Source: a virus
Lineage: Duplodnaviria > Heunggongvirae > Uroviricota > Caudoviricetes
IMG/VR virus record: IMGVR_UViG_3300028888_000058
Span: 39,060 to 103,059 of that record
Direction: 5' to 3' (one strand)
Length of the DNA: 64,000 nt
Shown: in pieces, positions 4,475-48,525 of the stretch
Numbering within the stretch: the stretch's first letter is position 1
Layout: each line of letters opens with the position of its first letter
Position numbers and translations under genes: made by a program
The notes under the pieces: generated by a model
Told to the model about the DNA's origin: nothing
Databases searched by the model: none
Seen by the model: only the letters and a program-made list of their open reading frames with translations

Positions 4475-4998
4475 AATCATTTAAGACAATAACAGAAGCA
4501 TATGCTGATAGGTATATTGATAAACAAGTATTAAGCAAGATTATAGATCTTTTAAAGAATGCTCTTAAAGAAGAATTTAATGCTTGGTATGGATATCTTA
4601 TTGTTAAAGAATTCTTATCAGGTACAGATAGATCTGATATTATGAAGATGTATGAAGATACTGCTAAAGATGAATTAGAAGATCATGGATATTGGCTTAT
4701 CAAACGTATTAATGAATTAGGTGGTACTTTAGACGATTTAAGTATGTCTCCTGCATCTTGGGTTAATTCTACTCACCCTTATGCAGCTCCAAAATGGAAA
4801 GGTGATATTGTTCCAATTAAAGAATCATTAGAATTGAATATACAGAATGAACTGGGAGCTATTGAATCTTATAAAGAAATAATAGAACTTACAAAGGATG
4901 TAGATTATACTACGCATTCAAAATGTAAACAGATTCTTGCTGATGAAGAAGAACATTTGCAATTACTTAAAGAATTTTTAGATGATATTAAAAACTAA
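4471..4998 (+). CDS. Ferritin/Dps-like four-helix-bundle protein with an N-terminal CTS-like motif (MKSFKTITE)
   Basis: Two ExxH motifs (DELEDHGYW, DEEEHLQLL) with ferritin-like spacing. ATGA overlap with the upstream gene. Confidence 0.5.
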   Translation: MKSFKTITEAYADRYIDKQVLSKIIDLLKNALKEEFNAWYGYLIVKEFLSGTDRSDIMKMYEDTAKDELEDHGYWLIKRINELGGTLDDLSMSPASWVNSTHPYAAPKWKGDIVPIKESLELNIQNELGAIESYKEIIELTKDVDYTTHSKCKQILADEEEHLQLLKEFLDDIKN

Positions 4999-7282: not shown

Positions 7283-9457
7283 ATGAAATCATTTCCAAGT
7301 ACATTAAATGAAAGCAAATCAATGTATGGATTTTCAAATTCTAGTTCAAATTCATATAAAACTTCATTTGATATTGAGAAATTAAAAGCTATAAACCTTA
7401 ATACATCTGTTCCTGTTCTTCAAGAATTGCTTAAAGAACAGAATATAAATATTGCTAACTATAATGGATATGCACCAAGCTATACAATGTATACACAAAC
7501 ATTTAGGGAAAACCCTATGATGCTTCCTTATGATGTTATTGCATTAGCTAAAGATTATGAATGGTGTTATAATGAACCTGCATTTGCATTACTTGGTATA
7601 GAGTCAGATGGTAAAAATAACGTAAATGAAAAATTATCAAAAATAAATATAGCTCCTTCAATGTTTAATCCAATGTATGGAGTAAACGTTAGAGGAATTA
7701 CTGCTAATGTGCCATTATTAAATAATATTAGGTATCTTGGTGAAATGGGTGCTGAAGCTGAAAATTTATCTTCATGTTCAATAAGAGAACTATGCGCGTT
7801 ATCAAAATCACCTAATTCAATATTAGGTATGGCTACATATAAGTATGCAGATTTTATGTACTGTAAAGATTTAGGAAAAGTATCTAATAATCATTTAATA
7901 ACATTAAGAAGATTTGCTCACCCAGTAAGTGATCATATATTTGAATTAACTGCACCAAAACATATTGATCCTGAACATACATCATTTGAACAAGAAGGTG
8001 ATGTTGGACGATTAGTTACTTGGTTTGGAACAGATGATAATAAATTAGAAGATATTATTAAATATTCATATCATGCTACTTGGAAAAAATTAGAAGCAGA
8101 TATACAACAAGAAGACTCAACTGCTGATGATAAATCATCGGGTATTTTAGGTATGTTATCAAATACAACTACTTCTTATAACCATGCTATAGCAGCAGGT
8201 ACTGGTGGTGATCATAGTTTATGGGCATATCTTGGTGGTAAAGTTTTTAAGAATGATGTTTTAGTACAGGGCGTCAGAAAAAATAATGGATTACTTAGAA
8301 ACTATGATAAAAACAGAGTATATACACCAAAGAATACAATTCAAGAAACTAATATGTATGAAGGTAAGATTGAATTCACTCATGAATTTACTCTTGTTTT
8401 TTCATATAAGTTACGTGCATATGATAACATTAATCCTAAATCTGCGTTTCTTGATTTAATTGGCAATATAATTGAAGTTACTGGTAGAAGAGGTAAATTC
8501 TGGGGTGGACAACGTAAATTAATAGGTCCTCAGCAAGATCAATCATTTTATAAACAAGCATATTCATTGATTGATAAGTCTTTCGATAGTATTGAAGGTG
8601 TATGGGGTACTTTAATGCAAGGTGGCGGTATACAATTTAACAATATTGTTGCTGCTCTTGGCAAAGGATGGGATGCTATTAAAGGCGGTGCTCAATCTGC
8701 AGCAAAGGCATTAGGAGGAATTATTAATAATGTTGCAGGTAAACAACCTCGTGAAATCATTAAAGGTTTATTAAAGAATGCTTTAGGACGTCCTACATTA
8801 ATTGCATGGAATTCATTATTAAGTGGAGCAGATACAGGATTATGGCATGTAACAATAGGTAATCCAAAAAATCCTATTATTGTTATGGGTAATCTTATTG
8901 TAACAGATTCACAAATAACTCAATCAGGACCATTAGGTTTAGATGATTTCCCAACAGAATTAAAAGTTTCAATATCATTAAAGCACGCAAGACCACGTGA
9001 TGCTGTTGATATATCTAGAATGTATACTAAAGGTGTAAGTTCAATATATAATCCATTAGCTACTCATGGATTAGATAAATATGTTTCAAGTGTTGGATCT
9101 GGAAATTATCAATTATTAGATAAAGCATCAATGGCAGAAGAAGCAACAAGTACAAAAAGTGTAGCAGGCACTAATGCAAAAGATAAATCTGGTGGTGATC
9201 CAACAAATGTAGGCAACGCGCATTCTGCAGGTGGTAGCACAGCACAAATGAAAAAACAAAATGCAATAGTTCATGGAGAATATCTTAAACAAGCTAATGC
9301 ATGGAAAAATAATGTTGGTGGTAGTAACACATATAATAAAGAAGCAAAATATTCTGTACCTAATCCATTCATAACAGATGGTGCTGCAATGCAAATGTCT
9401 CAATTAAATAACTATTCTGCATTAATGGCCGTTTTATCTGCAGATGAATTGATTTAA
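7283..9457 (+). CDS. Large putative internal or ejected virion protein (724 aa) with a CTS-like N-terminus (MKSFPSTLNE) and a Gly-rich segment
   Basis: [L]-x-E at residues 8-10 as in the T4 CTS. Gly/Ala-rich stretch GGGIQFNNIVAALGKGWDAIKGGAQSAAKALGG. Confidence 0.5.
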   Translation: MKSFPSTLNESKSMYGFSNSSSNSYKTSFDIEKLKAINLNTSVPVLQELLKEQNINIANYNGYAPSYTMYTQTFRENPMMLPYDVIALAKDYEWCYNEPAFALLGIESDGKNNVNEKLSKINIAPSMFNPMYGVNVRGITANVPLLNNIRYLGEMGAEAENLSSCSIRELCALSKSPNSILGMATYKYADFMYCKDLGKVSNNHLITLRRFAHPVSDHIFELTAPKHIDPEHTSFEQEGDVGRLVTWFGTDDNKLEDIIKYSYHATWKKLEADIQQEDSTADDKSSGILGMLSNTTTSYNHAIAAGTGGDHSLWAYLGGKVFKNDVLVQGVRKNNGLLRNYDKNRVYTPKNTIQETNMYEGKIEFTHEFTLVFSYKLRAYDNINPKSAFLDLIGNIIEVTGRRGKFWGGQRKLIGPQQDQSFYKQAYSLIDKSFDSIEGVWGTLMQGGGIQFNNIVAALGKGWDAIKGGAQSAAKALGGIINNVAGKQPREIIKGLLKNALGRPTLIAWNSLLSGADTGLWHVTIGNPKNPIIVMGNLIVTDSQITQSGPLGLDDFPTELKVSISLKHARPRDAVDISRMYTKGVSSIYNPLATHGLDKYVSSVGSGNYQLLDKASMAEEATSTKSVAGTNAKDKSGGDPTNVGNAHSAGGSTAQMKKQNAIVHGEYLKQANAWKNNVGGSNTYNKEAKYSVPNPFITDGAAMQMSQLNNYSALMAVLSADELI

Positions 9458-16225: not shown

Positions 16226-16435
16226 ATATTCATATATATTAATTTTATTTTTATATATTAAAGATTGTAAAAATATCTCTTATTGCCTATGGATAATTAT
16301 AGAGGTGTTAAAGCATCAGAGTTAATAAAACAATTAAAAACATATATGAATAAATTTGGAGATTTATATATATGTAAAGAAAAAGGAGGAAATATATTTC
16401 CAATATATTTTATAAATCATTATCCAAACACAGAT

Positions 16436-16516
16436 TATTTTGAATTGACATAATTTATTCAAAACATATAATTTTGAATTGACATAATTTATTCAAAACA
16501 TATAATTTTGAATTAA
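16436..16516. repeat. Tandem direct repeat, about 2.3 copies of a 34-35-bp unit (ttttgaattgacataatttattcaaaacatataa)
   Basis: Read directly. Each unit carries TAATTTTG (TAnnTTTG-like). Sits immediately upstream of the first gene of the CTS array. Confidence 0.7.
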
Positions 16517-16530
16517 CATAAATTAAAAAT

Positions 16531-16983
16531 ATGAAGAATATTAATAAGTACATAACAGAAAAATACAATACAGATAGTATTGAAGAATATTTGGAATCAA
16601 TTGTAAATTCTGCTAAAGGCAAGCCAGATATTTATGATGACACTGAATCTTGGGAAGCACGAGATGAATTTGATTATTGGCAAGATACATCTGGGCAATG
16701 GGATGATATTTTAGAATTTATAGATAAATATGCCTCTAATAAATGTGTAGCTGGATGGAAGAGTAAAGATTCATTTGAAAGCGTTGAAAAACTAGTTCCT
16801 AATATAGTCCGTAATATTATAAAGAAAAAACCAACAGAAATCCCATATAAGAAAAATTCAAATAAAATGGAAATGTGGGAAACTAAACAAGATGATTTTG
16901 ATATTAAAGTGTTAAAGTTCGGAAACTATGTTAATGATAATGGTACCGATTATAAAGAATATTGGTATATGATTGCTATTTAA
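16531..16983 (+). CDS. CTS-tagged hypothetical protein (MKNINKYITE)
   Basis: The N-terminal decapeptide fits the shared motif. Confidence 0.5.
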   Translation: MKNINKYITEKYNTDSIEEYLESIVNSAKGKPDIYDDTESWEARDEFDYWQDTSGQWDDILEFIDKYASNKCVAGWKSKDSFESVEKLVPNIVRNIIKKKPTEIPYKKNSNKMEMWETKQDDFDIKVLKFGNYVNDNGTDYKEYWYMIAI

Positions 16984-17009
16984 AAATAATAAAGATAACT
17001 ATGAAATCT

Positions 17010-17510
17010 CTTAAAGAACATATTATTGAAGAAGGAATTAAAGATAAAATCAAATCTTTTATCAATAAATTCAAAAAGGAAAAAATTCCAGAGAAGGTTT
17101 ATTCTTCTGATGATTTAGAAAAATATAAAGGTCAAATAATAACACCAAAAGATGCTGATGATATTATTGATATATTAATACATACTGATGATTATTTTAA
17201 AGAGTTTTTAATAAGCAAATATGAACCTAAACGTGAGCATATAAAACAAGAAGCATGTAAAAATGCCATATTAGATTATGCTTATGAAAATAATCAAGAT
17301 AGAATTAAGTATGATAAATATGGAGAAAGACATGCAAATCAAGCTGAATATGAATGTTGTAAACAACATGGTATAGATTCTTCATCAATTGCTGCTGGTG
17401 ATTTAATTCTTGCAATGATAAGACCTTATATTATGGGTTGGAGCTTTGCTGATAAAATGAAATTTAAAGCAGAAGAAAAATATAAGCCAACATATAAGAA
17501 AAATCAATGA
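17010..17510 (+). CDS. CTS-tagged hypothetical protein (MKSLKEHIIE). The track start at 16962 is upstream; the motif ATG lies at 17010.
   Basis: Shared motif. The upstream aagataactATG leader is identical to that at 2663-2674. Confidence 0.5.
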   Translation, partial: LKEHIIEEGIKDKIKSFINKFKKEKIPEKVYSSDDLEKYKGQIITPKDADDIIDILIHTDDYFKEFLISKYEPKREHIKQEACKNAILDYAYENNQDRIKYDKYGERHANQAEYECCKQHGIDSSSIAAGDLILAMIRPYIMGWSFADKMKFKAEEKYKPTYKKNQ

Positions 17511-18166
17511 AATCAATAAAAAACTATATTAATGAATCATTATCAAATGAAATACTTGATTTAAGAAAAAAATTAAGTAAATTAGATAAGTCTAAAATTT
17601 TTAATGGATTATATAATTTAGATGATTCTTTAGATAAAGAATTTTATAATATATTAATTTCATTAAATAAGTCAAATGCATCTAATAGTACTTTAATTAG
17701 TACATGGAAAATGTTGTTTTCAAAATTAATTATAGAACCATTAGTTGGAGAATTAATTGGAGATAATAAATGTGAATATTCTTCAATAAATATTGATAGA
17801 ACAGAGAAATGGGATATTAAATATAATAAGAATATATTAATAGATGTAAAAGCAACTTACAATAATCATACAGGTAATTTTAGTTTTTCTAAAAAAGATG
17901 CAGACTATATAATAAATTACAATAAGCAAGATATCAATAAAAGATATGTATTATTTGTATATCCTGAAATTAAGACTTGGGAAGATACAATAAAAATATA
18001 TAAAAATAAATCTATGGTTGATATGAAATTAATCAGTTATATAGATTTTAAAGAAATATTAAATAATAATGATTTTGAAGAAAAGAAATCAAATATATTA
18101 ATACCTAATTCTTTTATTGAAAAAAATGATAAATTTAGAAAATTTAATAAAAACATAAAGAAATGA
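17507..18166 (+). CDS. CTS-tagged hypothetical protein (MKSIKNYINE)
   Basis: Shared motif. ATGA-coupled. Confidence 0.5.
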   Translation: MKSIKNYINESLSNEILDLRKKLSKLDKSKIFNGLYNLDDSLDKEFYNILISLNKSNASNSTLISTWKMLFSKLIIEPLVGELIGDNKCEYSSINIDRTEKWDIKYNKNILIDVKATYNNHTGNFSFSKKDADYIINYNKQDINKRYVLFVYPEIKTWEDTIKIYKNKSMVDMKLISYIDFKEILNNNDFEEKKSNILIPNSFIEKNDKFRKFNKNIKK

Positions 18167-18351
18167 AATCTTTAAGACAGTATTTGACTGAAGAACTACA
18201 TGATGTAATAGTTAAAGTTGGAGATTATTGGAGAATAAAAGGTCATGCAGGAAAAGGAACAAATACTCCTAAACGTGGATATTGGAAAGCTAAATATAAA
18301 ACAAAGAAAAAAGCAGAAAACGCATTAAAAGCGTATTTTGCAAACAATTAA
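18163..18351 (+). CDS. CTS-tagged small basic protein (MKSLRQYLTE)
   Basis: Shared motif. ATGA-coupled. Confidence 0.5.
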   Translation: MKSLRQYLTEELHDVIVKVGDYWRIKGHAGKGTNTPKRGYWKAKYKTKKKAENALKAYFANN

Positions 18352-18373
18352 ATATATAAATCATTTATAAATT

Positions 18374-19033
18374 ATGAAAGATATTAAATTATTTATTTTA
18401 GAATCATTAAATAATAAACTATTAACTGCTGTTAAAAATCTTAATTATGATTTTTCAGAAACTGCATCTTTATCAAATAATACTAAAGAGAATAGAGCTA
18501 AAAAAACAAAAGCTCAAGCAAAAATATTTATAGATTTATTTAATGAATTAACAGATAAAGATACTCATTTTGATTATAAAGCAATTAGCTGTGAAGATTA
18601 TTGTAAATTAATTAATAAAACATATTCATTTATTGAAGATAGTAAAATAGGAGATATTATTATAATGAATGATAAAACTCCTGAAATGTTTATTGATTTA
18701 AAAGTAGCAGAAACTAATAAATATATTGGAACACCTGATATGTTGTCATTAGTTAATTTTGCTTCTGAACGCGACGATAAAAAATATTATTTATGTTCAT
18801 CATTAGATGGTACACAGACAAAATTAATATTAGCTAATGAAATATACAATATAATAATTTCTAAAAAAGGAAATGTTGTTGTTTCAAAAGATAGAAATTA
18901 TATTTCTAAAGAAGTTGAAGCATTTAAAGATAAAGTAAAATTAGTTGCTCCTAAAAACATGGAAAACGCAGATTTATCAAAACTATATGATGAAGATTTT
19001 GTTGCAACATCTGTAATAACAAATATAAAATAA
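18374..19033 (+). CDS. CTS-tagged hypothetical protein (MKDIKLFILE), bracketed by direct repeats
   Basis: Shared motif. About 45-bp direct repeats at 18300-18345 and 19036-19085. Confidence 0.5.
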   Translation: MKDIKLFILESLNNKLLTAVKNLNYDFSETASLSNNTKENRAKKTKAQAKIFIDLFNELTDKDTHFDYKAISCEDYCKLINKTYSFIEDSKIGDIIIMNDKTPEMFIDLKVAETNKYIGTPDMLSLVNFASERDDKKYYLCSSLDGTQTKLILANEIYNIIISKKGNVVVSKDRNYISKEVEAFKDKVKLVAPKNMENADLSKLYDEDFVATSVITNIK

Positions 19034-19035
19034 TA

Positions 19036-19085
19036 TGAAACAAAAGAAAAGCAGAAAACGCATTAAAAGCGTATTTTGCAAATAA
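19036..19085. repeat. Direct repeat duplicating the 3' end of gene 18163..18351 (aaaagcagaaaacgcattaaaagcgtattttgcaaa)
   Basis: Near-identical to 18300-18345. Confidence 0.6.
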
Positions 19086-19101
19086 ATAATATAATTTAAA
19101 T

Positions 19102-19548
19102 ATGAAGGCATTTAAAGATTATATTTTAGAAAATAAAGTTACAGAATTTAATTATGCTTCTGAAGGAGATCATGATTTTATTGATTAGGTAATTGAATTA
19201 TTGGAATCTAATGGATTTAATAAAAGTGAAAAAAAGATATTAAAATCAAAAGAATATAAGATAACAAATAATGGTTATGAATTATTTGCACGTTCTGAAC
19301 AGAATAAAACTATTAAGAATACTAAATTAGTATGTATTCGTAAAGGAGATAATAATAAATATGACTATTATTATAGATCTTCAAATGATTCATTTTGGAG
19401 ATATAATTTTTCTAAAAATCAACAAATAGTTCGATTTAGAGATTATCAGCATGCTAATACTGGTATTTATGATGTAAAAGATTCTAAATGGCACGATAGA
19501 ATATTGCAATCAATAAGAGGAATATTTAATATTAAAAAGGATAAATAA
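19102..19548 (+). pseudogene. CTS-tagged gene (MKAFKDYILE) interrupted by an in-frame TAG at about 19186-19188. The downstream body (track ORF 19201..19548) is in the same frame.
   Basis: Translating from the ATG at 19102 gives 28 codons, then TAG, then a 120-codon open frame in phase. Confidence 0.45.
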
Positions 19549-20192
19549 TGAAATCAATAACTAATTATATATTTGAAAAGATAAAGGATCTTCCTGATTC
19601 TATTAAAGGATTAATTGTATTTGATATTGATGATACAATATTAAAAGTTGATCCTAATATGATGTCTATTTATAAAAAGGAACCAGGAAAATCTGAAATC
19701 AAATTAACTACTGATGAATTTGCAAAAGATCCTGATGCAGAAGACCAAAGCAAGAGAGATTGGTTTGATTATAGAGATTTTAAAGATCCTGTAAAAGTAT
19801 ATAATTCTATCATATCTGGTACTCCATTGATTAAGAATCTTAAAATAATGGATGATTATGTTAATGCTGGATATGATTTTTGTTTTTTAACTGCACGTTC
19901 ATGTGAAGATACAGTTAAGAAAGCATTATCAGACTTCTTATTAGTTCGTGATGAAAATGGACTTTTAAAAGAATTAGGAGATTCATTTAAAAAGATTATG
20001 TCACATGCAGTTAATGATGAATATAAGAAATACCCTGGTAAGACAGATGCTGAAAAGAAAGCAAACATATTAATTAAGCTTTGTAAAAAATATGATAAAG
20101 TGGTATTTGTAGATGATGATAGAAAAAACGTAAATGCTGCTCGTGAATTGAATATAAAAAATTTAAAAGTAATTAAGGCTTGGGATGAATAA
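19548..20192 (+). CDS. HAD-superfamily phosphatase (Pnk phosphatase-like) with a CTS tag (MKSITNYIFE)
   Basis: Motif I FDIDDTIL (DxDxT), motif II LTARS, motif IV FVDDD. Confidence 0.6.
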   Translation: MKSITNYIFEKIKDLPDSIKGLIVFDIDDTILKVDPNMMSIYKKEPGKSEIKLTTDEFAKDPDAEDQSKRDWFDYRDFKDPVKVYNSIISGTPLIKNLKIMDDYVNAGYDFCFLTARSCEDTVKKALSDFLLVRDENGLLKELGDSFKKIMSHAVNDEYKKYPGKTDAEKKANILIKLCKKYDKVVFVDDDRKNVNAARELNIKNLKVIKAWDE

Positions 20193-20266
20193 AATGAATA
20201 ATAATAAATAATATGAAATCATTAAAAGAATATATTAAAATAAACAATAAAAATATTTTATAAATT

Positions 20267-20758
20267 ATGTTTAATAAAATTAGAGAAAAAATTGGTAAGT
20301 TTATATTACCAAACACTGTAAGAGTAGTTGATGCTACAGATATGACTGTTGATGAATTGATGAATAATCATGTTCAAAAATTAGAACAATTACCTGAAGT
20401 ATTCACTAAAGATTTTCTTGAAGACTTGATTAAAGAATATCCTAAGTTTGATCACCCAAATATTGTAGAATCTGATGGTAAAATAAAATTTACTGATGCT
20501 AATGGAAAGACAGCACAGCTTAAAGTTCCTCTTTTGACTATTGTTCCAATACCTTATATCTCTAAAGATGAAGTAGATTTGGATCAATACATTAAAGATA
20601 ATTTTGGAGATGTTAAATACCCTAAGAGTATGGAAGACATAAAGGGAGTTAAAGTAGAAGTTCCTGCATTGAATATTGTGCCAATACCTGATATAAGTAA
20701 AGATATAGATATTTCTTTTGATAAAGAAGCTAAGAAATCTAAAGAAAATAAAAAATAA
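20267..20758 (+). CDS. Hypothetical protein preceded by an orphan CTS start module (20213-20263, MKSLKEYIKINNKNIL, then in-frame TAA)
   Basis: The motif-bearing 16-codon mini-ORF is in the same frame as the body, separated by TAA ATT. Confidence 0.45.
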   Translation: MFNKIREKIGKFILPNTVRVVDATDMTVDELMNNHVQKLEQLPEVFTKDFLEDLIKEYPKFDHPNIVESDGKIKFTDANGKTAQLKVPLLTIVPIPYISKDEVDLDQYIKDNFGDVKYPKSMEDIKGVKVEVPALNIVPIPDISKDIDISFDKEAKKSKENKK

Positions 20759-20795
20759 TCAAATAATATAATTTCAAATAATATAATTTAAGTTA

Positions 20796-20836
20796 ACCAA
20801 TTAATAAGTATTGGTTAACTTTTTTATTTTTATATA
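20796..20836 (+). terminator. Rho-independent terminator
   Basis: 10-bp stem gttaaccaat/attggttaac followed by ttttttatttt. Confidence 0.5.
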
Positions 20837-20867
20837 TAATAAAATGATAAAAAGATTTTTATAAATA

Positions 20868-22115
20868 ATGAAACATCTACGAGATTATATATTTGAAACA
20901 TCAATTAATGGATTAAAATATTTAATTATGGATTTTGAATCTTCTGAAGATGAAACATTAATGAGTGGCTCACAATTTTATGATGTGTCTAAAAAATTAC
21001 AAAAAACTATTTCAAAAGAAGATTTAAAAAAAATATTTCAATATGCAAAAGATCATAAAAATTTAAAAGAAATTAAAGCTAGACCAGAACCTTTAGTGGC
21101 TAATTATGGTAATAAACATTTAGATTTTGCATTTAGGCGTTGGGTAAAAGATGCTATATTAGATTTAAATATTATAATTCATGGATCAAAAAATATATAT
21201 CATAATACTAATTTAAAAGGTAATGGTGAATGGGTTCCTACAGCTCAAGATATGGAAGATGTTATATCAATAGGATATAATAATGTTAATAAAATTAATA
21301 AAATATCTGAATCAAAAGATGATAAAATTGAACAAATTATAAAATATTACCAAGATAATAAAGATATAATCGATATTATTGTTAAAAAAATAAAATCAGG
21401 AAATTCACCATTAGGAAAACTTCCAACTAAAGGTATTATTGCTTCAGAAAAATGGAAAACTTTAGGAAAGTTTGAAAATATTAAAAATATAAATAATACT
21501 CCTAAAACAGATATCATATCTGCAGATCATAAATTAAAAATTTCATTAAAAGAAGAAGGTGGATCACAACTTATGTCAGGAGGATATCACGAAGCTTTAG
21601 CAACAATATTATGTGCAATTGAAAAATCAAAGTGTTTAGAAGAAGCAAAAGAATTAATTGCATCATTAGATATTAAATGGTTAACAGGATTTAAAGATAT
21701 CGATGGAATTGCAAAAATAAAAAGAAATCCAAATCATAAAGATTATGAATTAATAAAAAATGCTGAAACAAATGGCAATAAAGTTCAAGAATTACTAAAT
21801 AATCTTATAAAGAATAATTCTAAATTTGAATATGAATTATTATATGAAGCAATGACAGGATTAATTAAATTTGGAGAAAGTAATCCTGCATCTGCTAATT
21901 ATATATTGGTTTGGAATGATAAAACACCAGAATCATCTAAATTTTATACTCCAGAAGAATATATTAAACATTTAAAAGAATCAAAAATTCAATATTTAAT
22001 AAATTTTAAATCTGCAAATAATAATTCTTGGCAAAATATGCGTATAATTTGTGGTAACGCAAAATCAACAGATTCAGAAAAAACAGAAATTAAACCAATA
22101 AATAAAAATGAATGA
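20868..22115 (+). CDS. CTS-tagged hypothetical protein (MKHLRDYIFE), 415 aa
   Basis: Shared motif. Overlaps the next gene by 8 nt. Confidence 0.5.
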   Translation: MKHLRDYIFETSINGLKYLIMDFESSEDETLMSGSQFYDVSKKLQKTISKEDLKKIFQYAKDHKNLKEIKARPEPLVANYGNKHLDFAFRRWVKDAILDLNIIIHGSKNIYHNTNLKGNGEWVPTAQDMEDVISIGYNNVNKINKISESKDDKIEQIIKYYQDNKDIIDIIVKKIKSGNSPLGKLPTKGIIASEKWKTLGKFENIKNINNTPKTDIISADHKLKISLKEEGGSQLMSGGYHEALATILCAIEKSKCLEEAKELIASLDIKWLTGFKDIDGIAKIKRNPNHKDYELIKNAETNGNKVQELLNNLIKNNSKFEYELLYEAMTGLIKFGESNPASANYILVWNDKTPESSKFYTPEEYIKHLKESKIQYLINFKSANNNSWQNMRIICGNAKSTDSEKTEIKPINKNE

Positions 22116-23133
22116 AAATTTAAAAGAGGTACGTATATGTCTTGGCAGGTTTCAGCCATTCACATTAGGTCATCTTAAAATGGCTACTTATAAAGATCTT
22201 AAAGGTCCAGATAAAGAACAACAAGATAAGTTAAGAGAACAACCTAATTTAGAAGATATATCTAAACAGAAGACAATCATATTAGCAATATCTACACCAG
22301 ATGATAAAGTAGATACAAGACACCCTTTTAATGATGACTTAATGAAAAAAGAATTTGAATTAGTTAAGAAAAATTATAAGGATGATATCGAAGATGTATT
22401 ATATGTTTCTTCAGCAGATATATGTGCATGGGGTGAATTAATTAAGAAATCTGGATATAAAGCTTCAGTATGGTTGACTGGTTCTGATGAATTTAGTTTC
22501 TATAAAGGAATGGCTATTAAAGTTCCAGAATATGAAGAACATAATAAAAATAATAAAGATTGCAAAGATGCATATACAAAATCGTTTTATGTTGAAGAAA
22601 TTGAAAGAACTGAAGATAAAGATTTTGTATCATCAATATCTGGTACAAAAGTTCGTCAGTCATTATTAGATGGTGATAAAGAACTATTTACAAAAATGAT
22701 GCCAAAAGGAGTCGATAGATATTTTGATGAATTTAAAGAAAAAGTTGAAAATGCTCCAGAACCTAAGAAGAAAGAATCTAAAAAATCATTAAAAAACAAA
22801 ATTAAAGAAGATATGAAATCAATTAAAGACTTTATTTTAGAATCAAAACAAAATGAAAATCAAAAAGAATTAAATAATGCTATAGACATTATAAAAACTT
22901 GTTTAGATAAAAAAGGATATAAAGAAGATGAATTTAAGATAACTAAAGTATTTGGAAACGAAATAAGAGTTTATTTTATAAAAGGTTCAAATACTCATCA
23001 TGAAGCAGTTTCTAAAATTGGTAAATATATTGATAATGAATTATATAAAGCTCATAGTAAAGTATCTCATAAGACTATGGGTAAAGGTAAAGAAGGAGAA
23101 TATTATCAAGCATTTACAATTAATATATTTTAA
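22108..23133 (+). CDS. NMN/NaMN-adenylyltransferase-like (cytidylyltransferase fold) protein fused in-frame to a CTS-tagged module that begins at the internal ATG at 22813 (MKSIKDFILESKQN...)
   Basis: GRFQPFTLGHL (HxGH-type motif) and ISGTKVRQSL (SGTxxR motif). The internal 30 nt atgaaatcaattaaagactttattttagaa are identical to the start of the next gene at 23140. Confidence 0.5.
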   Translation: MNENLKEVRICLGRFQPFTLGHLKMATYKDLKGPDKEQQDKLREQPNLEDISKQKTIILAISTPDDKVDTRHPFNDDLMKKEFELVKKNYKDDIEDVLYVSSADICAWGELIKKSGYKASVWLTGSDEFSFYKGMAIKVPEYEEHNKNNKDCKDAYTKSFYVEEIERTEDKDFVSSISGTKVRQSLLDGDKELFTKMMPKGVDRYFDEFKEKVENAPEPKKKESKKSLKNKIKEDMKSIKDFILESKQNENQKELNNAIDIIKTCLDKKGYKEDEFKITKVFGNEIRVYFIKGSNTHHEAVSKIGKYIDNELYKAHSKVSHKTMGKGKEGEYYQAFTINIF

Positions 23134-23139
23134 ATTATT

Positions 23140-23445
23140 ATGAAATCAATTAAAGACTTTATTTTAGAAAGCAAAGCACCAAATAAAATATCTGCATCAG
23201 GTAAGAAAAAATTAACAAAATATATTGATGATCTAATTAAAAATATAGATGATATATATGATTATGCAGGTATTCCTACTGATGATGCTGACCAAGTAGA
23301 TTCTGATTGTAGAGATACAATATGGAATTGGGTTAATGATGAAGGAATATGTAACTGGGATACTGAAGATAAAGAATCAGTTGGATTTATAAATGATGAA
23401 TATAATAGATTATCTAAAGCTATATGTGATAAATATAAATTATAA
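23140..23445 (+). CDS. CTS-tagged hypothetical protein (MKSIKDFILE)
   Basis: Shared motif. Confidence 0.5.
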   Translation: MKSIKDFILESKAPNKISASGKKKLTKYIDDLIKNIDDIYDYAGIPTDDADQVDSDCRDTIWNWVNDEGICNWDTEDKESVGFINDEYNRLSKAICDKYKL

Positions 23446-23447
23446 TT

Positions 23448-24332
23448 ATGAAATCATTTAAAAACTATATATTAGAATCATTAGTTATAGAAGGTGGTAA
23501 TGCAGTTAAAGCAGAACCAATTCCTGCAGTAATAGCGCCTAAGGTTTATGATGAGATTGAAAAGAAAGTTCATTCAATATCAAAGTTTAAAGATATTGAT
23601 ATGGCAGCTTTAGGTAGTATTGGCAAAAAGGCAGATGACCAGACTAATGGAGATATTGATGTTGCAGTTAAAGTCGATACTAAGGATGAACTTAATGAAA
23701 TAGTTGATACTTGCTTTGGCGACTGTGAAATCAATTATAATACAATGAAGACTATTACATCATTTGGATATCCTTATGATATAGATGGTTATAAAGGTAT
23801 TGCACAAGTTGATTTTATGATAGTTAAAAAGATGGACTGGGCTAAAGCATATTATCATTCTCCTAACTTAAAGACTGGTGAATCAAAATACAAAGGTGCT
23901 GTACGAACTGCTGCATTAAGTTGTGTCATATCTTGTTTGCCAGTTCCTGATGTAAAAGATGAATATTTTGAAGATGGTGTTACAGTTAAGAAACATTGGA
24001 AACATACATTCAATACAGAAGGTGTATTCATTCAATTGATTGATTACTGTGGAAAGAATGGTAAGCCTGTTAAGAATGGTAAGAAGATTAAAGAATTTGA
24101 AAAATTAGTCACTAATGATCCAACTAATTTAGTAAGATTCATATTTGGAGATAATGGTACTATAGAAGATATTAATTCAATTGAATCTTTATGGAAAGCT
24201 ATACATGATCCTAAGAAATTCAACTGGGGTGATGAAGTATTAGCCGCTATTGAAAAGAAAATAATTGAAGACCCTGGATTAGAAGGAAAACTTAATAAAG
24301 AAGATTTTCCATGTAAATTTTATAAAGGTTAA
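23448..24332 (+). CDS. Pol-beta-superfamily nucleotidyltransferase with a CTS tag (MKSFKNYILE)
   Basis: LGSIGKKADDQTNGDIDVAV fits the minimal NTase signature [GS]-x(9-13)-DxD. Confidence 0.55.
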   Translation: MKSFKNYILESLVIEGGNAVKAEPIPAVIAPKVYDEIEKKVHSISKFKDIDMAALGSIGKKADDQTNGDIDVAVKVDTKDELNEIVDTCFGDCEINYNTMKTITSFGYPYDIDGYKGIAQVDFMIVKKMDWAKAYYHSPNLKTGESKYKGAVRTAALSCVISCLPVPDVKDEYFEDGVTVKKHWKHTFNTEGVFIQLIDYCGKNGKPVKNGKKIKEFEKLVTNDPTNLVRFIFGDNGTIEDINSIESLWKAIHDPKKFNWGDEVLAAIEKKIIEDPGLEGKLNKEDFPCKFYKG

Positions 24333-24335
24333 ATT

Positions 24336-24947
24336 ATGAAACAAATAAATAATTTTATAAATGAGAAACTTATTATAAATAAGAATATTAAAGTTGATAA
24401 GTATCATTATCATCCTATAGATAATAAAGAATTAAAAGATCTTATTGAAAAATTAATTAAAGAACGTGGAAATGAAGCAAATTTGAATGATATTGATACA
24501 TCACAGATAACAGACATGTCAAATTTATTTGAAGATTCAGATTTTAATGGAGATATATCAAAATGGGATATAAGTAATGTCAAAGATATGTCAGGTATAT
24601 TTCTTAATTCTGATTTTAACGGTGATATATCTGAATGGGATGTAAGTAATGTTAAAAATATGTTATTTATGTTTAATAGTTCTAAATTTGATGGAGATTT
24701 AAGTAAATGGGATGTAAGTAATGTTACAAATATGGCATCAATGTTTGCTGAATCTAAATTTACTGGTAAAAATGGAGATATATCTAATTGGGATGTAAGT
24801 AATGTTGAATTTATGTCATATATGTTTAATGATTCTAAGTTCAGTGGAAACATTTCTAAATGGAATATAAGTCGCGATACAAATATATATAAAATGTTTA
24901 AAGGTTCTCCATTAGAAAAGAATCCACCTAAATGGTACAAGAAATAA
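24336..24947 (+). CDS. DUF285-type (Mycoplasma/Listeria-type) 26-residue-repeat protein with a CTS tag (MKQINNFINE)
   Basis: Five tandem repeats of the form GDISxWDVSNVxNMxxMFxxSxF. Confidence 0.55.
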   Translation: MKQINNFINEKLIINKNIKVDKYHYHPIDNKELKDLIEKLIKERGNEANLNDIDTSQITDMSNLFEDSDFNGDISKWDISNVKDMSGIFLNSDFNGDISEWDVSNVKNMLFMFNSSKFDGDLSKWDVSNVTNMASMFAESKFTGKNGDISNWDVSNVEFMSYMFNDSKFSGNISKWNISRDTNIYKMFKGSPLEKNPPKWYKK

Positions 24948-24980
24948 TAAAAAATATTATAAAGATAATTTGATAATTAA

Positions 24981-26447
24981 ATGGAACATTTAATAGATAG
25001 ATATTTAAAGAAGCCTGAAGTAGTTAAAGATTTATTTACAAAAGAAGTAAGTATATCTTTAAAAGTTGATGGCGCTGCATTTCAGATATCTTATGATAAA
25101 GAAAATGATAATATAACATATCATAAGCGTGGTGGTTCTTCAAAATCATTAGGTCCTATTATTGATGAATATACTCAATTAATGAGAAAGAACATTAATG
25201 ATGCTATTGATTATTTTGAATCTAAAAAGGAAGCTGTTAAGAAGTATAAATTTTATGCTATTGAAATGTTCAACGATTCTTATATTCTTTTGACTGTTAT
25301 AGATAATGATAATAATATAATAGATGATAGAAATAAGTTAGAAGAAATATCAAAATCATTAGGCATAGATTGTGTTCCTATATTATTTGAAGGTAAATTA
25401 AATAAAGAACAGATTGAATCATTAATGTCAATGATGACATTAGAATCAGAAACTTCTAATGATGTATATAAAGAATATCTTACTAATATATTTGGTAAAG
25501 GTGACTATCAGAAATTTTTAGTCGGAGATGAAGTTGAAGGTATTGTATTGACATGGAATATAGATAATGCAATATCGCAGTATAAGATAATTAATCCTGC
25601 ATTTAAGACTCGTCATGATAAAGAAATCAAACAAGGAAATGAAGATTATAAGAAAGAAATAGAAGAATACATTAACTTATATGAATTGATATATGAAACT
25701 ATTAATAAAATTGGCAAACATGAGAATGATAATTGGATTAAGAATTTAGATGCTAATTTTATTAATATGATTAATAATGAAGAATTCAAATCTAAATATG
25801 AAGATATAATAGATACATTACAACCTAAGTTTAAAGATTTCTTTACATTACAGATTAATAAAGCATCTAAAGAAATACAAGATATCATCAAAGAGTATGG
25901 TGACAATATGAAGTTCTTATATGAAAAATATTTACAAGTATTTTTCAAACAAAAGAAACGTAACTATTTTATATCTAAAGAATTCCAATTAAATGTCAAT
26001 AAAGTAATCGAAAGACTTCAAAAAATAAATGAATCTAAACTTTCTCAATATATGAGAAGAAACATTAAATCATTTGGTGAATATTTTATTGATGAAAAAT
26101 TAAAAATTAATAAAGATACAAAAATTAATACAGTAGTATATTCAACAAATACTGGTAAGAAAATAGAAGTCATTAAAAAAGTTGCTGAAGATACTGAATC
26201 ATGGAAAAAATTTGAAAGTTTTGTACTTCAATTACGTCGTTTTAATTTAATGAAATATAGTAGAATACTTGTTTGTAATATTGAAGATGACAAATGGGTA
26301 ACAAATACAAAACAAAGTTATTCAATAAATGATTATCAACCAAATTATAGATATCTTTATTCGAGTCAGAAAAATTATTATACATATAAACAAGTAATTG
26401 AAATGCTTGAAAGCGGCAAACACATAATTATATTAGCAGGTAAATAA
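24981..26447 (+). CDS. ATP-dependent polynucleotide (probably RNA) ligase-like nucleotidyltransferase
   Basis: Motif I SLKVDGAAF (KxDG) and motif IV-like VEGIVLTW. Context includes the Pnk kinase and phosphatase. Confidence 0.45.
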   Translation: MEHLIDRYLKKPEVVKDLFTKEVSISLKVDGAAFQISYDKENDNITYHKRGGSSKSLGPIIDEYTQLMRKNINDAIDYFESKKEAVKKYKFYAIEMFNDSYILLTVIDNDNNIIDDRNKLEEISKSLGIDCVPILFEGKLNKEQIESLMSMMTLESETSNDVYKEYLTNIFGKGDYQKFLVGDEVEGIVLTWNIDNAISQYKIINPAFKTRHDKEIKQGNEDYKKEIEEYINLYELIYETINKIGKHENDNWIKNLDANFINMINNEEFKSKYEDIIDTLQPKFKDFFTLQINKASKEIQDIIKEYGDNMKFLYEKYLQVFFKQKKRNYFISKEFQLNVNKVIERLQKINESKLSQYMRRNIKSFGEYFIDEKLKINKDTKINTVVYSTNTGKKIEVIKKVAEDTESWKKFESFVLQLRRFNLMKYSRILVCNIEDDKWVTNTKQSYSINDYQPNYRYLYSSQKNYYTYKQVIEMLESGKHIIILAGK

Positions 26448-26450
26448 ATT

Positions 26451-26786
26451 ATGAAATCAATTAATGAATATATTTATGAATCTCAAAATACATATTTTTC
26501 CGAACAAGAAATTGGAAAGATTATGAAAGATATGTGGAATAAGAATGGCATCTTTTATAAGTTCATTAAAGATAAAGTAGATTCATTAAAAGCGGCTGAC
26601 ATAAATGATTATTTAGATCAATGTTTAGATGATAATAGATGTACAGCAGAATTTGCAGCATATATAGAAATGGTTATTGGACGTCATAATTTTAGTTTAG
26701 AACAAGTTCAGAAATTTATAAATACAAATGATTTAAAGGATGAAGAACCTAAAAGACATTATATCAGAGAAACTTATAATCAATAA
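26451..26786 (+). CDS. CTS-tagged hypothetical protein (MKSINEYIYE)
   Basis: Shared motif. Confidence 0.5.
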   Translation: MKSINEYIYESQNTYFSEQEIGKIMKDMWNKNGIFYKFIKDKVDSLKAADINDYLDQCLDDNRCTAEFAAYIEMVIGRHNFSLEQVQKFINTNDLKDEEPKRHYIRETYNQ

Positions 26787-27162
26787 GAATACTAAAGTTG
26801 AATCTTATAAGGATATTGATTATGATAATCCTGAAGATATATGTAATATTTATAAAGCTGCAGTTATATCTATAATGAAAAATTCTTCTTATATAGAAGG
26901 CCCAACATTTAAAAAGACATTAGTTAGAATTCAATATAACGACATTATAGATATTCTTAATGATGTTTTTGAATATAAGAATATTGATTATGATGAAGGC
27001 AAAATTAAAAAAGGTAATGTTTGGAGAATAATAAGTAATGATAAAAAGGCAATTCAAAATATTATAAATGGATATACTATAACACTTAAATATGATAGAA
27101 ATATTAAATTATCATATAAAGAATTATTTGAAAAATACAAAGATATTATCAATAAGAAATGA
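26740..27162 (+). CDS. CTS-tagged hypothetical protein (MKNLKDIISE); overlaps the previous gene by 47 nt
   Basis: Shared motif. Confidence 0.45.
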   Translation: MKNLKDIISEKLIINKNTKVESYKDIDYDNPEDICNIYKAAVISIMKNSSYIEGPTFKKTLVRIQYNDIIDILNDVFEYKNIDYDEGKIKKGNVWRIISNDKKAIQNIINGYTITLKYDRNIKLSYKELFEKYKDIINKK

Positions 27163-27683
27163 AATCAATTTTAACATACATAAAAGAATCATTAAATATA
27201 TTTGAAAAACAAAATCCTTTTAATGTTTGGATAATGGTTGGTCTTCCAGGTTCAGGTAAGTCTACATATATTAAAGAAGAACTTCCAAAAAATATTGAAA
27301 TTATTAATCAAGATTCAATAAGAGTTGAACTTGGAATTATGAAAGATGATGATCATAAAGCTATAGGTGATAAAGAACAAGAAAAGGAAGTGACTAGAAT
27401 TAATGATGAACGTATTAATGAACTTATAAGACAACGCAAAGATTTTGTTATTGATAATACAAATGTTAAAGCAGGACGTGTTGAAAACTATTATAGTAAG
27501 TTAAATAAAGCTGGTGCTAATGTTAAGATAGTCATTATAGATACTCCTAAAGATGTTTGCAAGAAACGTAGAAATGATTGCATACCTGAGAAAGTAATTG
27601 ATGATATGGAATTAGGAATCAATAAAGTTAAGAAAATATTTAAAGACAATAAAGATACTATCATTATAACAGATAGATACTAA
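27159..27683 (+). CDS. Polynucleotide 5'-kinase (T4 Pnk kinase-domain-like) with a CTS tag (MKSILTYIKE)
   Basis: Walker A IMVGLPGSGKST. VIDNTNVKAGRVENYY aligns with T4 Pnk IISDTNLNPERR. C-terminal region resembles Pnk. Confidence 0.6.
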   Translation: MKSILTYIKESLNIFEKQNPFNVWIMVGLPGSGKSTYIKEELPKNIEIINQDSIRVELGIMKDDDHKAIGDKEQEKEVTRINDERINELIRQRKDFVIDNTNVKAGRVENYYSKLNKAGANVKIVIIDTPKDVCKKRRNDCIPEKVIDDMELGINKVKKIFKDNKDTIIITDRY

Positions 27684-27715
27684 ATATTTATTTTAAAAAA
27701 CATATATAAGTAATA

Positions 27716-28081
27716 ATGAAAGATTTAAATAACTATATAGTTGAACGCGGAGCTGCGCCAGGATTAGGTGATAGAAAACCTTTGCATAGAAATCCTGCAG
27801 TAAATATGATACAATCAATTTTAGATGAATTATCTAAACATAATGATTGTAAATATGATAAAGAAAAAGATGCATGGTCTGGTAAAGACGCAGATCTTTG
27901 GAAAGGTGCAGGACAGTTCTTATTTGATTATGTACAAGAATTAAATCAAAAGGATTTTGAAGAAATTGTTGATCATTTTGGTTGGAAGCAATTTATACCT
28001 GATGTAAATGACATACATCCTTCAGAAATATCAATGTGTGTAGCATTAATATTGAATTCAAATAAACAAAAAGAAAGTTAA
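27716..28081 (+). CDS. CTS-tagged hypothetical protein (MKDLNNYIVE)
   Basis: Shared motif. Confidence 0.5.
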   Translation: MKDLNNYIVERGAAPGLGDRKPLHRNPAVNMIQSILDELSKHNDCKYDKEKDAWSGKDADLWKGAGQFLFDYVQELNQKDFEEIVDHFGWKQFIPDVNDIHPSEISMCVALILNSNKQKES

Positions 28082-28101
28082 ATTTTAAATAATATTTAAA
28101 T

Positions 28102-28216
28102 TTTTAGCTCAGAATATTGAATTATAAATATTATTCAAAATTTTAGCTCAGAATATTGAATTATAAATATTATTCAAAATTTTAGCTCAGAATATTGAAT
28201 TATTCTGAGCTTTTAC
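28102..28216. repeat. Tandem 39-bp repeat (2.5 copies of ttttagctcagaatattgaattataaatattattcaaaa); the last copy is converted into an 11-bp-stem hairpin plus T-run
   Basis: Read directly. Each full copy contains TATAAATA (about 28123-28130 and 28162-28169). Hairpin agctcagaata-ttgaat-tattctgagct, then ttttac. Confidence 0.65.
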
Positions 28217-33121: not shown

Positions 33122-33982
33122 ATGAAAAATATTATAGATTTTATATTTGAATCAAAATTCCCACACGAACGTAATAGTTATGCTGATGGTAAATTAGGTG
33201 ATCTTGCTTTTAAAAGAGATAAAGAACACTGGGCATGGGAAAATAAATATTATAAAAAATTATTAACATTACTTAATAATAAATATATTAAACCATTATC
33301 AAAAGAAGTTAAAAATATAAAAATTAATGGTGATATAAATAATGAACATGATTTCTTTGGTTGTAGTGCAGGTTATGTAAATTATTATGATTCTAAAAAA
33401 CAAAAACATGAAGAATATAATTTTAATATACATATAAATAATACTGATGATGAAACAATTAATAAAATTACAGATTATTTAGAAAAAAATAACATAGATT
33501 ATGTTATTGATAATAGTTATGTTAAATATGGGGAATATCGTATATGTATAAAAGATGATGAAATGGAAAAGATTCAACAAGGATATGATGAAGACAGTGA
33601 TAAAATATATGATAAGTATTCTAAGTTGATGAAACCATTTGAAAAAACTCCAGTAGATTTTAAAGATATTAAAGATGATGTTCAAAATGCATTAAATGAT
33701 AAAAATGCAAATACATATTTTGGTATATATCATGATGATTTATTAGATTATGAATTATATCCTGTAATTCCTAAATTAATAAACAGTGTAAATGATGTGT
33801 TTATGAGTGGAAAATATTGGTTCTTATGTTCTGCTCATATAGAAGATGAGACATATGATGATGTTATTCCACATAATTGGTCATGGAGTGATGATATGAC
33901 TTATGATGATTGTCTTTCTGCATGGAATGAATTATCTAAAAAACAACAGGATAAATTAATTGGTATGCTTAAAAATTGTTAA
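33122..33982 (+). CDS. CTS-tagged hypothetical protein (MKNIIDFIFE)
   Basis: Shared motif. Confidence 0.5.
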   Translation: MKNIIDFIFESKFPHERNSYADGKLGDLAFKRDKEHWAWENKYYKKLLTLLNNKYIKPLSKEVKNIKINGDINNEHDFFGCSAGYVNYYDSKKQKHEEYNFNIHINNTDDETINKITDYLEKNNIDYVIDNSYVKYGEYRICIKDDEMEKIQQGYDEDSDKIYDKYSKLMKPFEKTPVDFKDIKDDVQNALNDKNANTYFGIYHDDLLDYELYPVIPKLINSVNDVFMSGKYWFLCSAHIEDETYDDVIPHNWSWSDDMTYDDCLSAWNELSKKQQDKLIGMLKNC

Positions 33983-37170: not shown

Positions 37171-37173
37171 ACA

Positions 37174-37362: not shown

Positions 37363-37394
37363 AATATAAGAAATAAATTAAATAAATAAGATAT

Positions 37395-44501: not shown

Positions 44502-44505
44502 TATA

Positions 44506-46659: not shown

Positions 46660-46687
46660 TATAATAAAATTATAAAGTAAATAACGA

Positions 46688-48487: not shown

Positions 48488-48525
48488 ACATAAAACTAAA
48501 AAATAAAATTAAATAATATTTAATA

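Follow-up and report, generated by a model that had tools for sequence, protein, structure and literature searches.

A stretch of 64,000 nucleotides from a metagenomic virus of the Caudoviricetes (positions 39,060 to 103,059 of IMG/VR record IMGVR_UViG_3300028888_000058), referred to here in its full length as the window, encodes about 20 unrelated proteins that begin with the same short peptide. This peptide is likely to be a capsid-targeting and cleavage tag of the phage T4 type, greatly expanded in a megaphage lineage. Translation from the listed starts gave 17 intact genes on the + strand opening with M-K-x-[ILF]-x-x-[YFHI]-[IL]-x-E, namely those at 2672, 16531, 17001, 17507, 18163, 18374, 19548, 20868, 23140, 23448, 24336, 26451, 26740, 27159, 27716 and 33122, together with 22813, which starts at an in-frame internal Met. 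Beyond this intact set there are two decayed tags (19102 and 20213) and four deviant ones (3093, 4471, 7283 and 63480). A previous inspection of the letters and open reading frames (ORFs), which we call the sequence-only reading, had counted about 21 tagged genes, centered on an array at 16531-28081; 17 intact genes stand, but the count had also taken in the two decayed copies and several deviants.

The motif is found on 17 of the 68 gene N-termini, compared with 0.003 expected from amino-acid composition (Poisson P ~6e-59). Internal matches number 4 among 17,951 positions, one being 22813, and none of the 1101 Met positions on the minus strand carries the tag. Positions 1, 2, 4, 7, 8 and 10 are conserved, encoded by varying codons: Ile8 is ATA in ten cases and ATT in eight, Glu10 is GAA or GAG, Lys2 is AAA or AAG, and position 4 uses six codons. 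The DNA 5' of tagged genes shows no conservation between genes. The varied codons and unconserved upstream DNA indicate that the tag is conserved as amino acids and not as DNA, in agreement with the proposal that it is a peptide rather than an RNA signal. In T4, the capsid-targeting sequence (CTS) MKTYQEFIAE is cut once, after Glu10 (PMC8442874), and amber-suppressor experiments attributed targeting mainly to residues 4 and 7 and processing to residues 8 and 10 (PMC9026906). The conserved positions 4, 7, 8 and 10 are thus the T4 targeting and processing residues, and the likeness to the T4 CTS from which the sequence-only reading started is upheld.

The tag is modular: it occurs on proteins that are unrelated to one another and can be separated from the body that folds, as indicated by BLASTP, domain starts, AlphaFold2 (AF2) modeling and gain or loss among orthologues. 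Comparison of the tagged bodies with each other by BLASTP gave no match at E<=0.01, and the bodies carry differing Pfam domains (NDK, Dps-like ferritin, HAD, AAA_33 kinase and DUF285), each beginning at residue 18-25. All five families had been assigned to tagged genes before, the kinase as a Pnk-type enzyme, and for all five a Pfam match was obtained; the proposed polymerase-beta-type nucleotidyltransferase (NTase) at 23448 was confirmed by its fold. The AF2 model of this protein, computed from an alignment of database homologues, has a pLDDT of 89.6, with the tag forming a separate helix at residues 4-16 and the pLDDT dropping below 50 at residues 12-17, the stretch linking tag and body. Its best Foldseek matches are pol lambda and pol beta (2e-6), and the family profile gave no match when compared with PDB sequences. 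Nearly all of the 205 database homologues of the NTase start with MK..L..[FYL]IKE↓SLI.E↓GG (arrows denote predicted cuts), and two homologues, P0037 and P0039, are untagged and start with M(S/G)G.A(I/V)K, i.e. at the residue just after the second predicted cut (E15). The density of [IL]xE in the tagged bodies is at background, ~13 per 1000, and the mature cargo has a median isoelectric point (pI) of 6.0, compared with 5.6 for untagged proteins. The genes for the capsid, sheath and tube and most other genes of the window lack the tag. None of the tagged bodies matched T4 internal proteins or Alt in PHROG or Pfam, the likeness to T4 residing in the tag alone.

The same window encodes a gp21-type prohead protease fused to a scaffold (49821..51548, + strand, 575 aa) and a gp23-type major capsid protein (51666..53450, + strand; Pfam Gp23, 5.5e-29). 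The protease matches phrog_207, head maturation protease, at 6e-40, and PDB entry 5jbl at E 0.0095. In a phmmer alignment with the T4 gp21 chain of 5jbl, its motifs ELEHP (72-76), containing His, and SSRG (129-132), containing Ser, fall opposite two Ala positions of the crystallized chain, which we take to be the gp21 catalytic residues His85 and Ser140. The sequence-only reading was therefore right to name a gp21 homologue with His and Ser motifs at this place, with the reservation that the alignment to 5jbl is weak. The N-terminus of the protease, MTDKRCLIYE↓T, is itself tag-like and reads M(A/T)NK(K/R)C[LM][IV][YF]E↓T across the clade, echoing the LIE-9 site noted for T4 gp21 (PMC9026906). 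The protease-scaffold contains 21 [IL]xE sites in 575 residues (36.5 per 1000), threefold above the background of 12 per 1000 (P=1e-5), and 13 of the 21 lie in its C-terminal repeat region. The scaffold repeat has 12 residues, WI(V/T)EEF(A/S)PEVQ(N/G); at 50841-51085, in the scaffold half, a 36-bp repeat of 6.2 copies encodes W(I/V)xEEF(A/S)PE(V/I)Q(N/G), with [IL]xE in most copies. The capsid protein has a predicted propeptide (51666-51788) ending in the junction YAAIHEIHE↓S. Propeptide removal is predicted at IHE41↓S42, the IHE↓S junction pointed out earlier, and the form IHEIHE↓S/A is kept in 14 relatives, followed by a variable Gly/Pro-rich stretch.

The tag extends well beyond the window. 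In ~540 kb of related loci (numbered L001 onwards in our set) we collected 120 distinct tagged proteins of 62-1331 aa, using a regular expression that fixes M1, E10 and I8-type positions; M1 and E10 are invariant and I8 exceeds 90% in this set, in which the other positions alone are unbiased. An extended form, M.NL..YI.EKLHLNK(D/N), is present on 75 of the 120, and the window proteins at 24336 and 26740 have this form. Exact matches to the extended pattern number 50 across ~11 IMG/VR contigs, with up to 15 of them on one 75-kb contig. A Pfam census of the 120 proteins returned 16 DUF285, three NDK, three HAD and two zeta/AAA_33 kinase domains, single cases of ResIII helicase, cytidylyltransferase and RNA ligase, and no domain in the remainder. 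Orthologues retain the tag and drift at positions 3, 5, 6 and 9, and gain or loss affects the tag as a whole, e.g. the cytidylyltransferase has it in L010 but not in the window. In several relatives, tagged genes lie directly 5' of the protease and capsid genes; the window keeps the order tagged genes, protease, capsid, with ~15 kb of large genes (34795-49655) inserted. Within the clade the tag spans capsid-protein identities from 96% to ~56%, and an altered form is found in phage PAU at 35%. The tag was not found in the first 50 kb and last 45 kb of phage PTm1, nor in the stretches up to 20 kb from the capsid genes of LR756500 and Lak-A1 (Lak being translated with the standard code only).

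In PAU, 19 of ~295 genes open with MK[TSG][LI]xx[LM][YF]E, mostly within the head gene module. The PAU tag has nine residues (MKTLxxLYE↓A), and in many cases a second site comes after it, LYE↓AKLNE↓A; no enzymes were recognized among the tagged PAU genes. Four of the five PAU genes labeled ‘internal capsid protein’ carry the tag (Fisher P=6e-5), and so does the ‘scaffolding’ gene (P=4e-6 when this gene is included). The ‘internal capsid protein’ labels presumably rest on experiment, given that tag-based labeling would have marked all 19 genes. Hua et al. reported by N-terminal sequencing that the PAU capsid protein is shortened from 585 to 520 residues (PMC5646251); the capsid sequence there reads ALME64-N65, putting an L-x-E site no more than one residue away from the N-terminus that this length implies. 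The capsid propeptide and the cargo tags also have an element in common, QEKLNW compared with EKLHLNK in the clade and GAKLNES compared with EAKLNEAS in PAU (L043, 19959-20160), and this KLN-type element may be a common scaffold-docking element.

According to the capsid-targeting model, ~20 unrelated proteins of the window, and >100 in the clade, would each be synthesized with a short amphipathic helix at the N-terminus, M-K-x-[IL]-x-x-[YF]-I-x-E, which in some cases continues as ...EKLHLNK. During prohead assembly the peptide would dock on the scaffolding core, formed by the repeat-rich C-terminal half of the 575-aa protease-scaffold, and the docked proteins would be enclosed as the gp23-type shell forms. 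The gp21-type serine protease would then cut after the Glu of [IL]-x-E, removing the 41-residue capsid propeptide (IHE↓S), fragmenting the scaffold at ~20 sites and clipping the tags after Glu10, with a second cut at Glu15 in the NTase family. Mature cargo would stay in the head beside the DNA and enter the cell with it, such that the Pnk kinase and phosphatase halves, the NTase, NDK, the Dps-like ferritin, the DUF285 proteins and the ORFans could act before phage gene expression. Packaging, docking, cleavage, retention, ejection and the host role of the cargo are thus steps that we infer, and an anti-defence role is suggested by analogy to T4 IPI and IPIII (PMC3012670, PMC9391042).

The array itself begins with a series of tagged genes, which, like all genes given below with their tags, lie on the + strand. 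Five precede its first decayed member: the ORFans MKNINKYITE↓K (16531..16983, 150 aa), MKSLKEHIIE↓E (17001..17510, 169 aa; orthologue in L040) and MKSIKNYINE↓S (17507..18166, 219 aa; the L039 and L040 orthologues are tagged and differ at positions 4, 5, 7 and 9), a small basic protein, MKSLRQYLTE↓E (18163..18351, 62 aa, pI 10.1; orthologues in L036 and L040), and the ORFan MKDIKLFILE↓S (18374..19033, 219 aa). The second of these had been given a start at 17010, where the codon is CTT; the true ATG is at 17001. The next tag, MKAFKDYILE↓N (19102..19548), had been listed among the tagged genes and is broken by an in-frame TAG at 19186, leaving a 28-codon ORF and an in-frame continuation at 19201-19548, probably a pseudogene. 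It is followed by a HAD phosphatase of the polynucleotide-kinase phosphatase type, MKSITNYIFE↓K (19548..20192; Pfam Hydrolase, 4e-6; phrog_415 polynucleotide kinase, 3e-9), which has tagged orthologues in L013, L027, L036, L039, L040 and L062. The supposed tagged gene at 20213 proved to be a 16-codon remnant (20213..20263), MKSLKEYIKI, in which Glu10 is replaced by Ile and a TAA follows at 20261; the gene 3' of it, 20267-20758, is untagged in relatives. Past the stops at 19186 and 20261 the broken frames go on in frame, and the two stops look like recent decay within a fast-turnover array. Stop-codon reassignment was considered for these interrupted ORFs and rejected: stops in the window are TAA (57), TGA (8) and TAG (3), the two interruptions differ in codon, and the structural genes are intact under code 11.

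Further downstream lie a tagged ORFan, MKHLRDYIFE↓T (20868..22115, 415 aa), and the tag MKSIKDFILE↓S at 22813..23133. The latter tag is present as claimed, but it does not open a separate ORF: it lies in frame within ORF 22108-23133, whose N-terminal part is cytidylyltransferase-like (GRFQPFTLGHL motif) and runs into the tagged part with no stop before the tag. The arrangement could be a fusion, or the tag could mark an internal start; L039 and L040 have the cytidylyltransferase-like gene and the 22813-type tagged gene as separate genes. An independent homologue, P0034, fuses a cytidylyltransferase-like enzyme to a tagged NTase through an internal IKSLYTYLFE↓GG, and the tag inside 22108-23133 and P0034 might act as a linker open to cleavage. 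Next come a small acidic ORFan, MKSIKDFILE↓S (23140..23445, 101 aa), the NTase with its double site, MKSFKNYILE↓SLVIE↓GG (23448..24332; GS.GKK...GDIDIA motif), and a DUF285-repeat protein with the extended tag MKQINNFINEKLIINKN (24336..24947; Pfam DUF285, 2e-46). The array ends with the ORFans MKSINEYIYE↓S (26451..26786, 111 aa) and MKNLKDIISEKLIINKN, of the extended type (26740..27162, 140 aa), a P-loop kinase of the polynucleotide-kinase type, MKSILTYIKE↓S (27159..27683; Pfam AAA_33, 2e-20, from aa 23; phrog_505 polynucleotide kinase, 8e-23), and the final gene, the ORFan MKDLNNYIVE↓R (27716..28081, 121 aa). Untagged genes within the array are the RNA ligase (24981-26447), the cytidylyltransferase-like 22108- and 20267-20758. 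The array thereby holds a split RNA-repair-like set, consisting of the HAD phosphatase (19548-20192), the NTase (23448-24332), the RNA ligase (24981-26447) and the P-loop kinase (27159-27683).

Outside the array, an NDK-like protein, MKTIKAYIFE↓H (2672..3091, 139 aa), matches Pfam NDK at 1e-17 from aa 19, contains the catalytic-His motif NVMHSSDS and has tagged orthologues in L029 and L036. A 286-aa acidic ORFan, MKNIIDFIFE↓S (33122..33982), stands between the array and the head genes; it has an orthologue in L039 and a single homologue among 5.8e9 proteins. Two genes that the sequence-only reading counted as tagged are tag-like but deviate from the motif. The Dps-like ferritin, MKSFKTITE↓A (4471..4998), has a nine-residue tag with [IL]xE one residue early (Pfam Ferritin, 8e-17, from aa 25; PDB 2vzb, 3e-15, and further matches to Dps-like chains), and the 724-aa protein MKSFPSTLNE↓S (7283..9457) has LNE at 8-10 and no aromatic residue at 7. 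Two further tag-like starts were absent from that list: MSVLRYILE↓A (3093..3767, 224 aa), with a deviant nine-residue tag and no known domain, and MKSLTQIKE↓A (63480..64000), a candidate member, also with nine residues, whose ORF leaves the window and has no Pfam match; an assignment of this ORF as a sigma factor received no support from Pfam. A 60-aa ORF at 6613-6795 opens with MNKIKFFIKD, tag-like at 4, 7 and 8 and with Asp at 10; in the T4 CTS, Asp10 allows targeting and blocks processing (PMC9026906). A 2368-aa ORF (37395-44501) with no Pfam match starts with MGLYTGSLNE↓F, having L-N-E at 8-10 like the 724-aa protein at 7283, and the LNE starts of these two genes could represent a divergent tag of very large proteins.

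Tandem repeats bracket the array on both sides. At its 5' edge is a 34-bp repeat of 3.1 copies (16420..16525, + strand) containing two perfect TTGACA-16-TATAAT sites, 16445-16472 and 16479-16506, which are the sole 12/12 matches in the window; one promoter copy is kept at the array head in a 435-kb relative (L039). With a sigma-70-type promoter at the array head, expression may begin early. At the 3' edge, a 39-bp repeat of 3.2 copies with 95% matches (28081..28211, + strand) ends in a terminator-like hairpin and has TATAAATA twice. The 34-bp and 39-bp repeat units have the 10-mer TTATTCAAAA in common, which could be a regulator site. A bidirectional hairpin is found at 20790-20821. Compared with close relatives, the array is a mosaic, with cassettes reordered, missing or replaced and the junctions located at gene starts; this resembles the hypervariable internal-protein locus of T4 (PMC9026906).

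Several observations weigh against the capsid-targeting model. The tag system of this clade is known from sequence alone. On the expression side, the array is preceded by two copies of a perfect sigma-70-type promoter; use of this promoter would mean early expression, with later synthesis still possible, and in T4 itself the internal proteins are produced both early and late. No enrichment was seen for the T4 late-promoter motif TATAAATA (28 matches compared with 30.7 expected), and this chance frequency leaves a T4-type late promoter on the array unsupported. The basic charge seen in T4 IPII and IPIII was looked for in the mature cargo and not seen, the median pI being 6.0. The RNA ligase, which would complete the RNA-repair set, is untagged here, in contrast to the other three members; a homologue of it is tagged in one relative. 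The extended tag conserves KLHLNK(D/N) on the C-terminal side of the proposed cut, for which a simple T4 model gives no explanation. The match of the protease to T4 gp21 is weak (5jbl, E 0.0095), and Pfam Peptidase_S77 gave no match to it at E<=0.01, so that its assignment comes from PHROG and the weak PDB match alone. PTm1, Lak-A1 and LR756500 have the protease without the tag near the head genes, indicating that the protease alone does not imply a tag family. For PAU, no statement of the basis of the ‘internal capsid protein’ labels was found in the literature; gp70 is labeled and untagged, and 15 genes are tagged and unlabeled. None of these points contradicts the T4-type tag model, and every sequence-level prediction of the CTS reading that was tested came out as expected.

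The explanation that competes best accepts that the tag loads the prohead and differs in what the cargo is for: mainly assembly or DNA-packing parts, i.e. core fillers, DNA condensers or proteins degraded like T4 gp22, gp67 and gp68, rather than injected effectors. The tag on the PAU ‘scaffolding’ gene fits this explanation, as do the CTS-like ends of T4 core proteins (PMC5694885), and the Dps-like ferritin and the small basic 18163 protein (pI 10.1) could associate with DNA; moreover, most of the cargo consists of ORFans with no recognizable effector domain. However, with ~13 [IL]xE per 1000 compared with 36.5 in the scaffold, the tagged bodies do not look built for degradation, and several cargo proteins are apparently intact enzymes, including the NDK with its catalytic His, the P-loop kinase, the HAD phosphatase and the NTase with GS...DIDIA. 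The array is also highly mosaic among near-identical phages, which is typical of accessory and not of structural genes. We therefore consider a mainly structural cargo unlikely.

A role of the peptide as a protein signal unrelated to the capsid, e.g. a shared helix for docking to a chaperone or to some complex in the cytoplasm, a signal for timed degradation, or one for membrane or compartment targeting, appears very improbable. Such a signal would also be conserved at the amino-acid level, and it could accommodate the conservation of EKLHLNK beyond the supposed cut, possible early transcription from the sigma-70-type promoter and the presence in the cargo of metabolic enzymes not normally found in virions. 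It leaves unexplained, however, why the invariant features, [IL]8 and Glu10, agree with the cleavage motif that this phage also carries in its capsid protein, in its scaffold and at the start of its protease, why in PAU the tag belongs to head-module genes annotated as internal capsid or scaffolding proteins, and why natural variants lacking the tag start at the predicted cut; for a membrane signal, the peptide has too little hydrophobicity. The least credible explanation, which we hardly entertain, is that the shared start belongs to translation initiation or expression, or is a recombination by-product that spreads a common 5' gene end, with the peptide itself functionless: although most genes lack a Shine-Dalgarno sequence, AAA is the usual second codon, cassette junctions lie at gene starts so that the 30-nt tag sequence may be a recombination joint, and a remnant tag is left at 20213, initiation does not account for the absence of the tag from the highly expressed capsid, sheath and tube genes and most others, for the differing codons at positions 7, 8 and 10 (with Ile8 as ATA and ATT) or for its absence from all 1101 minus-strand Met positions, and the persistence of the tag from 96% to ~56% capsid identity, and in altered form in PAU (35%), is far beyond the reach of DNA homogenization.

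Returning to the capsid-targeting tag, a broader and tentative reading joins these observations. Heads would deliver dozens of reshuffled, pre-made proteins per genome, including a near-complete RNA-repair kit (with the ligase in some relatives), NDK and a Dps-like protein, active before transcription; the 30-nt tag sequence would serve as the recombination joint for cassette swaps, and tags and capsid propeptide would dock at the same scaffold site via (E/A)KLN. We regard this combination as possible, with the odds rather against it. It is speculation that the tagged Pnk halves and the NTase suit a pre-emptive repair of RNA cut by host nucleases.

The window is AT-rich (G+C 23-37%), and nearly all genes up to ~58.8 kb lie on the + strand. 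Pfam and PHROG searches of the window proteins placed the tail sheath at 53703-56759 and the tail tube at 56842-57426. By capsid-protein identity, the closest isolated phages are PAU (35%), Tenacibaculum phages pT24 and PTm1 (33%) and the Prevotella Lak megaphages (31%). The host of PAU is now reassigned to Sphingobacterium (PMC3738902), which gives all nearest isolated relatives Bacteroidota hosts. A Shine-Dalgarno sequence is missing 5' of most window genes, which we consider consistent with a Bacteroidota host, and the host of the megaphage is probably a Bacteroidota member of the ruminant gut. Close relatives in IMG/VR are contigs of up to 435 kb, among them IMGVR_UViG_3300021256_000054 with a 96% identical capsid protein; when the array was compared with 50,697 phage records by megablast, no match was obtained. 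The goat-ileum metagenome-assembled genome (MAG) ‘Clostridia bacterium RGIG2387’ (GenBank JAFRDD01) carries the exact extended tag pattern 22 times or more, spread over several contigs (loci L049-L052, L055, L056 and L061). This species-representative Clostridia MAG is most likely a mis-binned megaphage of the clade.

Other genes of the window include four distinct cell-wall hydrolase domains within 9 kb, namely Amidase_3 (3812-4474), phage lysozyme (5892-6605), GH19 chitinase-like (11503-12318) and CHAP (12321-12917), and an SPFH/band-7 protein (30992-33016) just 5' of the head genes. Three paralogous BspA-type LRR_5 proteins (44506-46659, 46688-48487 and 48612-49655) have a different N-terminal module of ~30 aa, M.K(K)HIK..Q....NVP..LI(T/N)KLY. 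The LRR_5 genes, a 791-aa carbohydrate-binding protein and the 2368-aa ORF make up a block of ~15 kb that splits gene 34103 from the protease; in relatives L005, L006, L008 and L009, the equivalent of gene 34103 adjoins the protease.

A short, cleaved N-terminal capsid-targeting tag is already established for T4, and its use for varied cargo in related phages was suggested earlier (PMC9026906). Our literature search found no paper describing so large a tag family, such enzyme cargo, the extended tag or the family of tags in PAU. If the capsid-targeting model is true, a simple sequence rule predicts the injected proteome of an uncultured clade of ruminant-gut megaphages and of the culturable PAU, and >100 candidate first-strike proteins, mostly of no assigned function, form a focused screening list for anti-defence and host takeover. 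Capsid delivery would then stretch from a few small inhibitors to ordinary enzymes (RNA repair, NDK and nucleotidyltransferases), offering one explanation for the non-DNA content of very large heads, and the tag would be a ready packaging signal for engineering Bacteroidota phages. Relatives in which one and the same enzyme has acquired or lost the tag constitute a natural comparative experiment on when pre-loading pays.

Among known systems, encapsulins load cargo that includes ferritin-like proteins into an HK97-fold shell by short peptides, which are usually C-terminal and remain uncleaved; these peptides have no homology to the megaphage tag. The Dar antirestriction proteins of phage P1 are similar in that accessory proteins enter an HK97-fold shell through short targeting regions and protect the incoming DNA, but they are loaded hierarchically without a common cleaved decapeptide and show no homology. 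The phiKZ-like giants (phiKZ, 201phi2-1 and SPN3US) have many head-internal proteins, 19 of them processed in 201phi2-1, with cuts after Glu by a distant gp21 homologue, redundant sites in the propeptides and injected cargo (PMC9026906, PMC5694885). They differ in the motif, S/A/G-x-E, in propeptides often exceeding 100 residues with no short shared tag, and in belonging to another capsid type and phage lineage. T4 has only a handful of tagged proteins, as opposed to ~20 in the window and >100 in the clade; here, recognizable enzymes and repeat proteins are among the cargo, which lacks a predominantly basic character, protease and scaffold form one fusion protein, and a subtype carries the EKLHLNK(D/N) extension, all of this being read so far from DNA. 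In turn, the T4 CTS of IPI, IPII, IPIII and Alt has the same design, a start of ~10 residues with MK, hydrophobic or aromatic residues at 4 and 7, Ile8 and Glu10, placed on unrelated proteins and accompanied by a gp21-type protease, a gp23-type capsid propeptide ending in [IL]xE, a site-rich scaffold and a hypervariable locus of tagged genes. In PAU, the tag is one residue shorter, with Glu at 9, and is found mostly on small ORFans clustered inside the head module. PAU nevertheless belongs to the same broad lineage, carries MK[TS][LI]xx[L][YF]E↓[AS] on unrelated small proteins and has a capsid protein processed next to LME.

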